NCBI GenBank assembly: GCA_951406725.2
Contig: OX597834.1
Span: 45,756,001 to 45,820,000 of the forward strand
Reading direction: 5' to 3'
Length of the DNA stretch: 64,000 nt
Source of the DNA: Octopus vulgaris
Lineage: Eukaryota
The position numbers and the translations under genes are program-made. Within the stretch, counting starts at the first letter, position 1, and every line of letters starts with the position of its first letter. Below the pieces are notes generated by a model, which was given only the letters and a program-made list of their open reading frames with translations, did no database searches and had not been told where the DNA came from. Positions 8,311-53,200 of this stretch are shown here, piece after piece.

Positions 8311-9370
8311 GACTTTAATAATATAGTTTTCCCATTCTAGATTAAGAGATTTTAGTAAGAGCAAATTTTGTCACCACTGTGAAGGCATTAAGTAGCAAAG
8401 CTAGCCTCTTAAATACTCAGAATGTAAAGAACCGGAGGAAATACTGCGAAGAATTCTTTCCGACGCTCTAATGTCTTTTCCAGTTCGCCGTCTTCTGCTA
8501 GCTTGACGGCTTAAAGAAATGAGTAGCATTACTTAAATGCTAGTAACATTTGTCAAATACATAATACAGATTATATTCATTAGACATGGGATTATAATAA
8601 TTCCGTGCCCGTAACGAAAAATGCTGAAAAAACGCAGCATTTAAAATATTTGATAGAAATGTTAATAGCTTTGCCTGCATTGCGTAACATAAGTTACAAG
8701 GACATCTATTTATATAAATATGAGAGCAGTGAGGATTCTCTCATCATTTCGACACGTAAAAGTTCGGTAAGAAACATCTGCACAGTGGTCTTAGTTCAAT
8801 GTTTGAAGCAAAGGTGATGGTTTGCGCTTGAGTCTGCAAAATGAATATTATTTTAGGAGATATAAGTCTGTGTAGAGCCAGTCCACCTTTCTCTTCCTTG
8901 GAACTCACATTGATCTGGCACTAGAACCACGACCTAAGGATTTATCTAGATCCAGGTTTTGTATTGAGCTACCTTCCCCTAGCTTAAGAGCTAAAGAGCT
9001 GAAAGGCCTCATATAGGGTATCTGTGTGGGGGATTGTCCGGAGAGAATGCCGTATGCCATAACGGGGACACATACAGGTGCTACTCTTCTGGTTCGGAGT
9101 AAACCTGGGACACAATACTCACTAAGAGGTGTTTCCACACTCAGCAAAACCGAGGAATTCTCCAACCAAGTCCGAAATACCGGGAGCAGATTACAGTCAT
9201 AATATGAACTGAGTATAGCAGTCGTAGTCTATATCAGTAAATTACACGGGTGTGTGTGAGTGGGGGGGGTACCGACCCTCCTTTAAAGGATGAAAAGTAA
9301 ACGACTGGTGGTATTTAAAGAAAGATGGTTAAGGGACGCAGTTAAATTTTCTTTGTGTGTTATATTTTAG

Positions 9371-9435
9371 ACTTGCCCAAGGTGCCACGCAGTGGGACTG
9401 ATCCCAGAACCATGTGGTTGGTAAGCAACCTACTT
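9371..9435 (-). mobile_element. SINE family A head fragment, left part of a copy split by the ORF1-only element
   Basis: ACTTGCCCAAGGTGCCACGCAGTGGGACTGATCCCAGAACCATGTGGTTGGTAAGCAACCTACTT is the reverse complement of the SINE A head; it continues at 11681. Confidence 0.85.
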
Positions 9436-9611
9436 TATTTCAAAACATTTGCCATAAAGGCAGTACACAGATTAAGTTAGCTTTGCGGGCTGGACGAGGA
9501 CATTAATGAGGTGAATGATAATGAAAGAAAGATGATAAGGATGGGAGAAGACAGAAAGCGCCCGCCGACTTTTGCTTCTCTAAAACATTGTTCTTTTTAA
9601 AAAAGATTAAC

Positions 9612-9737
9612 ACAAAACGAGGTATTAAACCTCTTACAATTTTTCCAATTTTGGGCTTAGCAGTCCATTATTAATACAAAACGAGGTATTAATCCTCTTA
9701 CAATTTTTCAATTTTTGGACTTAAGTCCATTACTAAT
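9612..9737. repeat. Two-copy ~64-bp tandem duplication in the element's 3' UTR
   Basis: ACAAAACGAGGTATTAA(A/T)CCTCTTACAATTTTT...AGTCCATTA(T/C)TAAT at 9612 and 9676. Confidence 0.9.
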
Positions 9738-10977
9738 AATACATATCGTCCTCGAAATAGCTTGTGCCCGCGCCCTCCACCATCAACCACGCCTCCCTCA
9801 GAACGTAGTCAAGTTCCGAGTTCGCGTCGCCCGGGACCAAGTTATAGTCTTCATTGAGCTCCTTTAGCCCTAGCGTCACGTCGAACGCCACGGCCTCCAC
9901 AGCTACCTGCGGAGGCCATTCGGGGTCCTGTGTGAAGGCTAAAGGTGCTCCCTTGTAGTGCTCTTCCATCACTTTTTCAATTTCTCCTCCTCTATAGAAG
10001 AGGACCAATACATTCAGTTCTTTCGTTGGCGGCACAGTTTCCGCCAACGGTATTCCTTCTCTTGTCGGTGGCACAACCCCAACCGACGTAGTTCCGCGAC
10101 ATTCCGGTGCCACACTGACAGCCGTCAACGTCCCGTTTTTCTTCCTCTTTTTCTTTTTTTTTCCCTTTTCAACTGAGGGAAGGTGCGTCTCCTCCGTGGC
10201 TGGAAGATTCGCCCTCCTCTCCTCATCCCTATTATCCTTTGGTGAGCACCCATTGTTGCTCACCTTCCTCTTTCGGCCTCTGCTTGAGGAGTCCTCTGCT
10301 TTCTCGGCCGTTATCGTTCCCTCTTCTAGAGGGGTTTTACTTAACTGTTCCGGGATCCTATTTTGTTCCCGAGGACAGTTCTTCTTTATGTGGCCGGACT
10401 CCAAGCACCGATGACACTTAGGGGGGCGACCCTCAAGCATCACCGGGTACCTGCACCCGGCCATTTTCAAAAAATCTGGAAAAACCAGATTGGCTGATTG
10501 GGTCCACAGGGTCAAAACTGCTTTCGAGCCAACCCAAGCAGCCGCAGGAAGAACTTTTACATTGAGGAGCTTAGTTTCGCTGTCACCCAGACCCCGGCGG
10601 ATAGTCTCCTCTATCCACTCGGGTTCTATGTCGGGTGGCAGTCCGCAGATCCAAGCTTTCATCAATTTCTTTTTTTTGTAAGTGGGCAGGAATAAGATTT
10701 CCTTACCCTCCAAGGGTTCGCTAGCAAATTTGCAAGCCTCTTCAGGGGTGTCAAACAGCAACCACACCGTTCCATATTTGACACCCCTGGAAATGAATTT
10801 AATTGTTGGCAAATACTCCTCCAACTCCTCCTCAATTGCCGTCTTTTCGAATAGGGCGATGGTGTCAAGTGCCTTGGAGTAGGTTCTCAACACCACCGTC
10901 CTATCTTCACGGTCCTTCAACCACTTTTTGGGTGGTATGATTTCCCACTCCAAAACTTTGTTATTTTTCATTGCCAT
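9733..10977 (-). CDS. L1/Tx1-type ORF1 (gag-like) nucleic-acid-binding protein, 414 aa
   Basis: Uninterrupted, intronless, GC-elevated ORF starting at ATG. CX2CX4HX4C knuckle CHRCLESGHIKKNC (10375-10416) follows RRM-like segments (VWLLFDTPEEA; WICGLPPDIEPEWIEETI; YPVMLEGRPPKC). Basic NLS-like tracts (RGRKRK, KGKKKKKRKK). Confidence 0.85.
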   Translation of the reverse strand: MAMKNNKVLEWEIIPPKKWLKDREDRTVVLRTYSKALDTIALFEKTAIEEELEEYLPTIKFISRGVKYGTVWLLFDTPEEACKFASEPLEGKEILFLPTYKKKKLMKAWICGLPPDIEPEWIEETIRRGLGDSETKLLNVKVLPAAAWVGSKAVLTLWTQSANLVFPDFLKMAGCRYPVMLEGRPPKCHRCLESGHIKKNCPREQNRIPEQLSKTPLEEGTITAEKAEDSSSRGRKRKVSNNGCSPKDNRDEERRANLPATEETHLPSVEKGKKKKKRKKNGTLTAVSVAPECRGTTSVGVVPPTREGIPLAETVPPTKELNVLVLFYRGGEIEKVMEEHYKGAPLAFTQDPEWPPQVAVEAVAFDVTLGLKELNEDYNLVPGDANSELDYVLREAWLMVEGAGTSYFEDDMYY

Positions 10978-11680
10978 GTTTTTTAAAAAATATATTCAAA
11001 TTAGACTCAAAAGCAGGAAGAAAAAAGTTCAAAAGTCTAAATAAATTTGATAGATTTTTGAAAAAACAAAAAGGAGAAAGCACAACAGAAGGGAAGAAAT
11101 TAACGGAAAGTCGCAATAAAGAAAAAACAAAGGGGGGGGGGGAAATGAAGTTCAAAAGAAAGTTAATAAACAGAAAAAACACAGCAAAAATATTCTGGCC
11201 TTGCGGTACTCCCGGCCTGGGTTGAACCTGGAACACCGCAACTGCAACACAACCTCCACAAAAAGGTCCGAAAGGTAATCCAATAGTGGCTTATTTTTAT
11301 ACTTTTCTTGCGAAGTACTCTGATAAGGGAATAAATTCAACAAATCCAAACACAGCACTGGCTACCGCCAACGGTGATTTTAACAGTAACTGTATTGAAT
11401 TCTGAGGATACGCCCCTCCACTGTTTTTTCTTTTTTTTTTTTTTTTCAATGAACACAAAAACGGCAGCCGCCTAGCGCAGGCGAAATTGTCTCAGAGTTG
11501 GACACAACCTACTGAAATAATAATTGGCACGCAATAAATTATGCCCAACTCACAATAAACAAAATCACTTACCTCGACAACTTTCCGTTTTTGGTCTTTT
11601 TTCTTTAGTTGGAAGGAGCTTGTTACTCACGTCCACTCTAGCTCAACAGGAAGCAACCGACTAACTGCGCATGTGTGGTT

Positions 11681-11713
11681 AGCAACCTACTTACCACACA
11701 GCCACTCCTGCGC
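11681..11713 (-). mobile_element. SINE family A 5' end, right part of the split copy
   Basis: AGCAACCTACTTACCACACAGCCACTCCTGCGC is the reverse complement of the SINE A start (compare 23642). Confidence 0.85.
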
Positions 11714-11778: not shown

Positions 11779-11829
11779 TGTATGTATGTATGTGTGTTTG
11801 TTTGTATGTATGTTTTTATATAGAACGAG

Positions 11830-11985
11830 CCTCTCCGCTTTCTGCCTATCAGATCCACTTACAAGCTTTCGATGCCCGTGGTTAAAGTAGAAGTCCACTG
11901 GCCAACGTGTCACGCTCCAGGACTGAATTGGGAACCATGGGGGTTGAGAAGCAAACTCCTTACCATACGCCCCCATCATGCGCCT
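11830..11985 (-). mobile_element. Degenerate SINE family A copy
   Basis: ATCCACTTACAAGCTTT...GGACTGAATTGGGAACCATGG...GCAAACTCCTTACCATAC matches the reverse complement of the family A 5' half. Confidence 0.6.
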
Positions 11986-12936: not shown

Positions 12937-13324
12937 CTGTGTGGTAAGTAGCTTGCTTACCAACCACATGGTTCGGGGTTCAGTCCCACTGCGTGGCACC
13001 TTGGGCAAGTGTCATCTACTATAGCTTCGGGCCGACCAAACCCTTGTGAGTGGATTTGGTAATCGGAAACTGAAAGAAGCCCGTCGCATATATGTCTATA
13101 TGTCTATGTATGTGTGTGTATATGTTTGTGTGTCTGTGTTTGTCCCCCCAACATCGCTTGACAACCGATGCTGGTGTGTTTACGTTCCCGTAACCTATTG
13201 GTTCGGCAAAAGAGACCGATAGCATTAGGCCTCGGCTGACAAAGAATAAGTCCTGGGATCGACTTGCTCCACTAAAGACGGTGCTTCAGCATGGCCACCG
13301 TCAAATGATTGAAACAAGTAAAAG
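12937..13324 (+). mobile_element. tRNA-derived SINE family A, near full length
   Basis: B-box-like GGTTCAGTCCC, CORE-like CCTTGGGCAAGTG, internal (TA/TG) microsatellite after AAGCCCGTCG, tail GAAACAAGTAAAAG. Homologous to the 24785 and 43689 copies. Confidence 0.9.
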
Positions 13325-13790
13325 AAAGTAAACAGAGAGAGTATTAAAGAAGAAAAGGGAGAGTTTTAACAGATAACATCAACTTATTAACATTTTGTCA
13401 ATTTGCATTGCCTACAATTGTTTCCATATTCAACTCATTGAAATTACAAATTTATAAATTAAAACAGCATTTTGAAAATTACGAGTTAAATATTTCTTCA
13501 GAGTGAAAATATGACACGAAAGTAATCACATCTCGATCGATTGAGTCTTCTCATATTAACATTCATATATTTATAAAAACGTTTTAAGGGTAAATGCATT
13601 TTGTTTTTATTTTTTCTGTGTGTACCTGGACTCCATAATGTGTCTAATAATTTTTTAAAATATTAAATAATAAACACCAATACTACAAAGTAAAACGTTA
13701 CTCAGGAGTATTTCATCGATTCATCGGATTAAACCAGGGAGACGTGGATGCTTTCTGTCCCCGCAATATCATATAACATGCACACACACT

Positions 13791-17679: not shown

Positions 17680-17890
17680 AAAAATAGAGAAGCTTACTTC
17701 CGAACCACATGGTCCCAATTGCGTGGCACCTTGAGTGAGTGTCTTCAACCATAGATTCGAGGTGACCAAAGTCTTTTAAGTGGATTTTATCGCTATAAGG
17801 AACCGATAAAATAATTCCTAGGCTGACAAGAATAAGTAATGGGGTCGACTGAAGGTGGTGCTCCAGCATGACCGCAGTCAAAATAACCAA
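17680..17890 (+). mobile_element. Degenerate SINE family A copy
   Basis: AACCACATGGT..GCGTGGCACCTTGAG..GTGTCTTC..GGTGCTCCAGCATGACCGCAGTCAAA. Confidence 0.7.
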
Positions 17891-23641: not shown

Positions 23642-23720
23642 GGCGCAGGAGTGGCTATGTGGTAAGTAGCTTGTTTACCAACCACATGGTTCCGGGTTCA
23701 GTCCCACTGCGTGGCACCTT
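23642..23720 (+). mobile_element. SINE family A tRNA-like head only
   Basis: GGCGCAGGAGTGGCTATGTGGTAAG (A box)...CCGGGTTCAGTCCCACTGCGTGGCACCTT (B box). Confidence 0.85.
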
Positions 23721-24784: not shown

Positions 24785-24932
24785 GGCGCAGGAGTTGCTG
24801 AGTGGTAAGTAGCTTGCTTACCAACCACATGGTTCGGGTTCAGTCCCTCGGCCTGGCACATTTGTCATGTGTCTTCTACTGTGGCCTCGGGCCGACCAAA
24901 CCTTAAAAAGAAGCTGAAAGAAGCCTGTCGTA

Positions 24933-25002
<70 letters not shown>

Positions 25003-25125
25003 AAGAGCGATAGAATAAGTACTAGGCTTACAAAGAGTAAGACCTGTGGTCGATTTGCTCGACTAAATGCGGTGCTCCAGCATGGCCAAGGTGAAATGAC
25101 TGAAACAAGTAAAAGATTAAAAGAG
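24785..25125 (+). mobile_element. SINE family A with internal deletions and a (TA)n centre
   Basis: Head GGCGCAGGAGTTGCTGAGTGG; tail GGTGCTCCAGCATGGCC..GACTGAAACAAGTAAAAG. Confidence 0.85.
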
Positions 25126-26145: not shown

Positions 26146-26500
26146 ATCATTAGACTGCGGCCATACTGGAACACCGCCTTAGATTTTTACTCGAATGAAT
26201 CGACAACAGTACTTAATTTTTATGCTTGGTACTTATTCTATCGGTTCCTTTTGCCGAGCCGCTTGATTACGGGGACATAGAGACATTAACACCAGTTGTC
26301 ATGTGGTGATGGGGGAACAAACAAAGACACACACACATAAATATATATACATACATATATATATACTATATATACAACGGGTATTTTTCCATCTACCAAA
26401 TCCACTGACAACCATTTCGTCAACCTGAGGCTATAGGAGGGGACAGGTGCCCAAGGAGCCTCGCAGTAGGACAACCTGGGCCCATGTGGCTGGGACTTAA
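26145..26500 (-). mobile_element. SINE family A, diverged minus-strand copy
   Basis: GACTGCGGCCATACTGGAACACCGCC...TACTTATTCTATCGGT..TTTGCCGA...ATCTACCAAATCCACT...TGCCCAAGG. Confidence 0.75.
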
Positions 26501-43479: not shown

Positions 43480-43680
43480 GGCGATGAGCTGGCAGAAACG
43501 TTAGCACGCCGGGTGATATACCTAGCGGTATTTCGTCTGCCGTTACGTTCTGAGTTCAAATTCCGCTGAGGTCGACTTTGCCTTTCATCGTTTCGAGGTC
43601 GATAAATTAAGTACCAGTTACGCACTGGGATCGATGTAATCGACTTAATCTCTTTGTCTGTCCCTGTTTGCCTCCTCTGT
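43480..43680 (+). mobile_element. SINE family B
   Basis: High similarity to 37170-37400. Confidence 0.9.
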
Positions 43681-43688
43681 GGTTGTGT

Positions 43689-44063
43689 GGCGTAGGAGTG
43701 GCTGTGTGGTAAGTAGCTTGCTTACCAACCACATGGTTCCAGGTTCAGTCCCACTGCGTGGCACCCTGGGCAAGTATCTTCTACTGTAGCCTCAGACCGA
43801 TCAAAGTCTTGTAAGGGGATTTGGTAGACGGAAACTGAAAGAAGCCCGTCGTATATATATATATGCATGTGTGTGTATATATTTGTGTGTCTGTGCTTGA
43901 CAACCGTCCCCTTAACTTAGCGGTTCGGCAAAAGAGACCGATAGAATAAGTACTAGGCTTACAAAGAATAAGTCCTGGGGTCGATTTGCTTGACTAAAGG
44001 TGGTGCTCCAGCATGGCCACAGTTAAATGACTGAAACAATTAAAAGAGTAAAGAGTAAAAGAG
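43689..44063 (+). mobile_element. SINE family A, full length, directly after a family B copy
   Basis: A box TGGCTGTGTGG, B box GGTTCAGTCCC, (AAAGAGT)n tail. Confidence 0.9.
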
Positions 44064-52911: not shown

Positions 52912-52974
<63 letters not shown>

Positions 52975-53200
52975 ATATGTTTCTGTGTCTGTGTTTGTCC
53001 CCCCAACATCGGTTCACAACTGATGCTGGTGTGTTTACGTCTACGTAACTTAGCGACTCGGCAAAAGTAAACCGATAAAATAAGTACCAGGCCTACAAAT
53101 AATAAGTCCTGGGGTCGATTTGCTCGACTATAGGCGGTGCTCCAGCATGGCCACAGTCACATGACTGAAACAATTAAAAGAGAAAAACAGTAAAGAGTAG
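52975..53200 (+). mobile_element. SINE family A 3' half
   Basis: TGTTTGTCCCCCCAACATCG...GGGGTCGATTTGCTCGACTA..GGTGCTCCAGCATGGCC..GACTGAAAC. Confidence 0.85.

Follow-up and report, generated by a model that had tools for sequence, protein, structure and literature searches.

Non-autonomous LINEs that have kept ORF1 form a described class, with HAL1 in mammals, HeT-A in Drosophila and Ag-Sponge in Anopheles as examples. HAL1 codes for ORF1p only and is derived from mammalian L1, whose ORF1 consists of a coiled coil, one RRM and a CTD (PMC5753468, PMC5786205). About 40% of the telomeric Jockey families in Drosophila are stated to have lost ORF2, and HeT-A and other ORF1-only telomeric Jockey elements are presented with an RRM/CCHC ORF1, containing three knuckles in HeT-A, with the chromosome end as single kind of target and with head-to-tail stacking (PMC13534243, PMC5786205). 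Ag-Sponge is CR1-derived and the portion of the source dealing with it makes no mention of a fixed target (PMC5786205). Elements of the Tx1 clade, as far as their description in PMC4494074 goes, insert into other transposons, with passengers piled up about a single duplication; Tx1L occupies a fixed site in the abundant Tx1D of Xenopus, and in crocodilians Tx1-Mar, Tx1-9_AMi and SINEU-3 have a site in common and are arranged in tandem at a single duplication. The targets given there are DNA transposons, LTR elements, RNA genes and microsatellites, and the passengers are non-coding. A further source deals with RTE and Dong elements (PMC9115989).

The element analysed here lies in a window of 64,000 nucleotides from Octopus vulgaris (contig OX597834.1), to which all coordinates refer, and represents one intact member of a repeated Octopus family of ORF1-only retroelements. 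ORF1-only LINEs and the transposon-targeting Tx1 elements are known separately and are here combined at the head of a SINE. HAL1 elements carry a poly(A) tail. The element resembles HAL1 in coding for ORF1p without ORF2 but differs in its two predicted RRMs and CCHC knuckle, the absence of an A tail and a landing site common to several copies, so that the label HAL1-like, given in a sequence-only reading of the locus, holds for the mode of working and not for membership. With HeT-A it shares the RRM/CCHC ORF1, the single kind of target and the apparent head-to-tail stacking, whereas its target is a dispersed SINE base, a target site duplication (TSD) is present, there is one knuckle and the unit is 2.2 kb long. 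A shared site in an abundant transposon and the apparent tandem arrangement of passengers are as in the Tx1 systems, but here a SINE head serves as target and a conserved ORF1p is encoded by the passenger. Like Ag-Sponge it is probably an invertebrate, ORF1-present non-autonomous LINE, and two traits of that class, several copies with shared ends and a conserved ORF1p, here of type I, were found.

Structure of the element

The features identified are collected in Table 1. The boundaries, the length and the exact 12-bp TSD proposed in the sequence-only reading were correct, the element being on the minus strand, and so were the single uninterrupted ORF, the 5' UTR, the 3' UTR of about 300 nt and an AATAAA-like junction, the AATAAA spanning the join between element and TSD. 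Missed at that stage were the insertion in a SINE head and the duplicated 64-nt unit at the end of the ORF and in the 3' UTR.

Table 1. Features of the ORF1-only element and its host SINE (window coordinates)
Feature	Position	Strand	Remarks
Whole ORF1-only element	9436..11680	minus	2,245 bp; repeat-level depth in all bins, 4/4 runs
TSD, 5' copy	11681..11692	minus	12-mer AGCAACCTACTT
TSD, 3' copy	9424..9435	minus	12-mer AGCAACCTACTT
5' UTR	10978..11680	minus	703 nt; one upstream ATG with a 3-codon frame
ORF1	9733..10977	minus	414 aa and stop, uninterrupted
RRM-fold domain 1 (predicted)	10672..10932	minus	aa about 16-102; AlphaFold2 pLDDT about 84-97
RRM-fold domain 2 (predicted)	10420..10671	minus	aa about 103-186; AlphaFold2 and fold searches
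Single CCHC zinc knuckle (predicted)	10372..10419	minus	aa 187-202; Pfam zf-CCHC E 0.0077, below the curated cut-off
3' UTR	9436..9732	minus	297 nt; poly(A) absent; 3' end shared with other copies
Tandem duplication of a 64-nt unit, overlapping the stop codon	9606..9738	minus	88.7% identical
AATAAA across the 3' junction	9434..9439	minus	two of its bases from the TSD
Candidate antisense motif to the 12-bp landing site	9474..9486	minus	38 nt before the 3' end
Possible resemblance of the first 11 bases to the target downstream of the TSD	11670..11680	minus	anchored alignment
Splice-donor-like motif in the 5' UTR, strong	11574-11567	minus	pyrimidine tracts precede the ATG
Host SINE head, first part	11693..11713	minus	like four other SINE heads in the window
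Host SINE head, remainder	9371..9423	minus	SINE copy breaks off at 9371

The 12-mer AGCAACCTACTT has two matches on the plus strand of the 64-kb window and none on the minus strand, both matches being the TSD copies. When the element was shuffled 300 times the longest ORF was 161 aa, as against 414 aa in the real sequence, and the 19 other ATG-started ORFs of at least 120 aa in the window are mostly frames in simple repeats. No second copy of the element or of ORF1 occurs in the 64-kb window.

Two contigs from runs guessed to be RNA (X8 record 27 and X18 record 16) terminate at 11648-11659, 21-32 nt short of the 5' end, a weak hint at the start region of a transcript. When comparing the 5' UTR with other contigs, a stretch of 12 nt (11613-11624) was found to be missing in contigs of X2, X8 and X18 and one of 6 nt (11196-11201) in X2 and in one X1 contig, so both are probably near-private insertions of this copy.

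The host SINE and the duplication

The sequence at 9371-9435 is 92-95% identical to four other SINE copies in the window, and 11681-11713 matches the first part of the same four heads. Removing the element and one 12-mer in silico gives a contiguous SINE head like the four intact ones, each of which contains the 12-mer once and is identical in the 14 bases downstream of it. Host SINE and element have the same sense. At 9429/11686 the TSD has a base found in none of the four intact heads and, in run X1, at odds with about 90% of the summed SINE depth; since both 12-mers carry this locus-specific base, the TSD was made at this locus. A duplication generated on insertion, one of the traits of membership in the Tx1 clade, is thus found here, with 12 bp and the locus-specific base twice.

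The insertion is flanked by an A-box-like motif in the first part of the host SINE head and a B-box-like motif in the remainder, which is how we take these two short sequences. A search of Rfam with the SINE copy at 43660-43900 gave no tRNA match; three tRNA-derived octopus SINEs are cited in the literature (PMC4824008). Other copies or fragments of the host SINE are situated at 11806-11968, 12937-13325, 17688-17882, 23642-23720, 24785-25119, 26147-26493, 43694-44050 and 52943-53182, and the one at 23642 breaks off shortly past its head and is followed by other sequence.

Loose contig ends at 9371 were seen in four of the four sequencing runs used, and the contigs of the flank stop within the SINE. 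The broken end of the host SINE adjoins a GC-richer stretch (8950-9370), single-copy at 85% likeness, one plus-strand frame of which ends in a motif that we presume to be of the kind found at the C-termini of L1/Tx1 ORF2. A decayed ORF2 end was considered for this stretch and was without Pfam support in six of six frames; because the stretch is single-copy at 85% likeness it would in any case not be the present partner.

Copies of the element in public sequencing runs

Further copies were sought in the contigs of public runs, among them X1, X2, X8 and X18, the latter three guessed to be RNA; the depths given are summed contig depths and not copy numbers. In run X1 the depth was 52-99 in the four flank bins at 8900-9279 and 12,886-266,278 in all 23 bins of the element. 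The same flank had a depth of 17-99 in four of four runs with the element bins far higher, and the lowest element bin of any run was 503, compared with 17-29 in the flank of that run. One contig of 2,083 nt (X2 record 17) spans 9609-11685, 2,077 bases, and is 99% identical to the element, from which it differs by 19 letters and 24 gap letters; it constitutes a second near-complete copy and has no ORF2 after ORF1. The repeat-level depth in 4/4 runs and this second copy bear out the earlier proposal of a family instead of a one-off, and the proposal that the family is young is moderately supported by the few differences between the two copies.

Several contigs pass from ORF1 into the 3' end, X8 record 21 bridging the stop codon (9649-9789) and X18 record 10 bridging 9488-9637 and thereby joining the repeat to the terminal segment. 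A second form, with the 64-nt unit once and a different stop region (9674-9740), is present in X1 and X8 and passes directly from the end of the ORF into the same 3' UTR. Among the listed contig comparisons (the best 21 out of 239 rows of loose ends and 27 out of 3,527 pieces, a selection favouring like flanks) no loose end leaves the stop codon into long unrelated sequence, and the one found at 9480 in X8 (255 letters) comes from a relative with its end out of view.

These contigs bear on the possibility that ORF1-only copies are dead-end by-products, through deletion or early termination, of an autonomous two-ORF LINE whose target they share, and thus form no lineage. Contig depth is compatible with that account, since ORF1 in two-ORF elements and ORF1 in short ones are not separable by depth and most of the DNA contigs are short, and purifying selection on ORF1 would be expected in an autonomous master. 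Against it stand at least two forms, with two units and with one, in which one and the same 3' UTR follows ORF1 directly, a diverged X8 contig with the same 3' end and site (see below) and the absence, among the listed loose ends, of any that exits the stop codon into long unrelated sequence. We therefore hold by-products to be an unlikely explanation and a family of ORF1-only elements to be the better one.

A shared landing site

Five of the listed contig records extend to an end of the element, in all of them the adjoining sequence is this SINE site, and they probably represent four other copies. Among the 3' junctions, X8 record 20 (9420-9559, with 8 differences) includes 16 bases of the target, and X18 record 9, aligned from 9430, includes 6 and stops beside the variable base with 71 further letters; six variants are common to both, so these two records are probably one copy. 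In both of them, as in the element itself, the 3' UTR abuts the TSD directly without poly(A). A diverged X8 contig (depth 21.9) has a side of 26 letters ending at 9443, which can be read as 9418-9443 and would then agree with the element in 3' end and site. Of the 5' junctions, one in an X1 contig passes into a SINE head carrying the majority base; in X2 record 17 the target site is present, preceded by an AT-rich stretch resembling the 3' end, which we read as a tandem neighbour.

The probability of a random insertion at this base and strand is about 4e-5 (5 sites in 128,000, in this window). Random flanks would be expected to give a cluster of loose ends at 9436 or 11680, and none was seen at the top of the X1 list, among its best rows. 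More than 20% of one flank type is the level at which a target preference is recognised for Tx1 elements in the description consulted (PMC4494074), and here the share was 5/5 of the listed junctions, in a flank-biased sample. A preference for one base of the SINE head is supported by these records, a junction sample that is small and biased to like flanks.

One old insertion multiplied together with its SINE flanks, by hitch-hiking, as a composite or by segmental duplication, would likewise place all visible junctions at the same SINE position, with no targeting involved. Under such an account the two 12-mers here would not be expected to carry a locus-specific base where the 5' junctions in X1 and X2 have the majority base; moreover the flank beyond 9370 is single-copy and a diverged subfamily is found at the same site. 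Joint multiplication with the flanks is for these reasons highly improbable, and repeated insertion at a preferred base is the reading followed below.

The ORF1 protein

When ORF1 was compared with Pfam, a weak CCHC knuckle at aa 187-202 was the only match, and a profile of 37 ORF1 relatives matches retroviral nucleocapsid knuckles with an E value of 4e-7. The AlphaFold2 model, built with 37 sequences, is confident for aa 11-210 and poor after about 240. With VIA-align, domain 1 matches the La RRM (Z 9.2, rmsd 2.5, 82 aligned) and domain 2 the PABPN1 RRM (Z 7.8, rmsd 2.4, 73 aligned), most other RRM matches having Z 7-8, and with Foldseek the tandem RRMs of hnRNP A1/A2B1 and HuR match ORF1 with E values of about 1e-4. 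Mammalian L1 ORF1 structures are absent among the listed fold matches, which alone excludes nothing; the model has no long N-terminal helix, the RRMs starting at residue 16. ORF1 thus models as two RRM domains and one CCHC knuckle, the outcome of a fold check that had been suggested for what was then called an RRM-like/CCHC ORF, and by this model it is a LINE-type ORF1 of the type I plan with the RRM upstream of the CCHC. Type I ORF1s (RRM and CCHC) are reported from I, Jockey, R1, Tad1, plant L1, L2 and CR1, with Tx1 unmentioned in the part of the source consulted (PMC4120745).

Relatives of ORF1 were found with HMMER (56 matches), and seven of the ten looked up come from Octopus or Argonauta. 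Pfam gave some match for 14 of 20 relatives scanned, a zinc knuckle in 13 of these, and no endonuclease or RT domain in any of the 20. No fused ORF1-ORF2 relative was found among relatives of 726-2,070 aa and 1,508-4,305 aa, in weak searches, and two scans of metagenomes gave no relatives. The closest relative is LOC115225585 of O. sinensis, a protein of 281 aa with three accessions, 64% identical over 282 aa. In a second O. sinensis model a short match to the N-terminus of ORF1 is joined to a PF00665 domain, and by their sequences both models look like copies of this element family.

Five distant relatives of 800-860 aa from ENA/JGI contigs (P0034, P0043, P0060-P0062) share the RRM/CCHC core and contain in addition, at the C-terminus, a conserved block of about 130 aa that the ORF1 of the element lacks. 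Look-alikes of ORF1 in the Atlas are eukaryotic CCHC and ZCCHC3-type clusters with scores of 0.91-0.93, a lead only.

The tandem RRM fold, the relative with 64% identity annotated as an O. sinensis gene and the splice-donor-like motif in the 5' UTR are all features that a processed retrocopy of a single-copy host RNA-binding gene, or a domesticated ZCCHC3-like gene, might show. The retrocopy, named in the sequence-only reading as an outcome that would overturn it, does not fit the depth, hundreds of times that of the flank along the whole element, and the single or low copy number expected of either kind of gene is not what is seen. Diverged relatives are also numerous in Octopus and Argonauta, the annotated one stops at 281 aa and poly(A) is lacking. 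As to the donor-like motif, it is retained and not spliced out in this copy, and no splice joint was found at it among the listed X2, X8 and X18 contigs covering it. The host-gene reading is largely refuted and scarcely credible, in contrast to that of a mobile family.

Selection on ORF1

Twenty of the 33 distinct ORF variants listed are synonymous, an excess over the expected share of 22-29% (p at most 0.0001), and stop codons are absent among them; the variants are the best-supported rows (the best 40 of 208 and the best 40 of 85) and are not independent events. Within aa 1-215 the synonymous share is 14/18 of the listed variants and in the tail of ORF1 6/15, the latter not significant. Judged by these variants ORF1 is under purifying selection, and the synonymous excess would look identical if ORF1 were purified in an autonomous master.

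Proposed mechanism and presumed partner

Taken together, the element is probably an ORF1-only, non-autonomous LINE derivative that codes for a predicted RNA-packaging protein and is moved in trans by a site-specific partner, likely of the Tx1 clade. The steps proposed rest on established target-primed reverse transcription. The unit would be transcribed by Pol II and the element's own RNA coated by ORF1p, after which ORF2p of the partner would introduce a nick into the SINE head, on its antisense strand and between TT and A, bordering the 12-mer. The freed TT end would prime on the A-rich 3' end of the RNA and a second nick 12 bases off would give rise to the TSD. The 5' junction, nearly recreated by the first 11 bases of the element, would stay a usable landing site and tandem stacks would therefore be explained.

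Since the element is without RT, assignment of the partner to the Tx1 clade, which we consider likely by analogy, rests on site specificity and duplication. A clean 12-bp duplication and a nick of the TT/A type are typical of Tx1, and the ZCCHC3-type clusters with RBD1, RBD2 and CCHC (Atlas, 0.91) are, we assume, Tx1-ORF1-like; both count against a parent or partner from another APE-type clade (CR1, L2, I/Nimb or R1) for an otherwise identical site-specific family. Such a clade could be argued for from type I ORF1s being widespread and swapped between clades, as the available text of PMC4120745 has it, and from CR1 having as many recently active families in O. vulgaris as L1-Tx1, for which 13 are given in the portion of PMC13282606 covered. 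Preference for another transposon is again typical of Tx1 (PMC4494074, as far as consulted), and another clade is in our view very unlikely. Tx1 is the likeliest partner because it often targets transposons, its passengers stack and L1-Tx1 has been recently active in O. vulgaris.

Two further signals, both post hoc, are weak. The anchored alignment score for the likeness of the 5' end to the target is reached by 0.2% of random 14-mers from the window, and 0.7-0.9% of random window 60-mers and 1.1% of shuffles of the tail score as high as the antisense motif. A scrambled SINE head was considered for the first 40 nt and rejected, an unanchored test of these 40 nt against the SINE head, in which the likeness of the 5' end disappears, being not significant (p 0.15-0.18). 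The RNA folds of both ends, the 3' one with or without the TSD, did not surpass those of shuffles (z -0.01 to 0.44), which lends no support to a hairpin of the antisense motif with the read-through site.

A more far-reaching version would have the half-LINE home to one base of the internal promoter of the SINE and rebuild that site with its own 5' end, leading to stacks, with an antisense stretch near the 3' end of its RNA pairing with the target DNA and helping to guide the borrowed enzyme. We regard this version as speculative and rather unlikely; if true, it would amount to a three-tier parasite with self-made landing pads and to an RNA-guided contribution in an APE-type LINE.

Relation to described elements and possible use

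In the literature searched, outside Repbase, Dfam and subscription journals, no ORF1-only LINE was reported in cephalopods, and the parts searched of the curated O. vulgaris repeat paper leave ORF1-only families unmentioned (PMC13282606). Nor was a LINE aimed at a SINE head found in a search of mostly titles and listings, outside subscription journals. Within the literature searched, each ingredient is published and the combination with a SINE target appears undescribed.

The SINE target is very abundant and presumably mostly harmless to hit, and each insertion would split the internal promoter of a host SINE copy. The family may serve as a natural system for studying what preserves a purified ORF1p in a passenger RNA and by what route an APE-type LINE acquires base specificity. 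Elements of this kind are annotated as octopus genes, LOC115225585 being one example.
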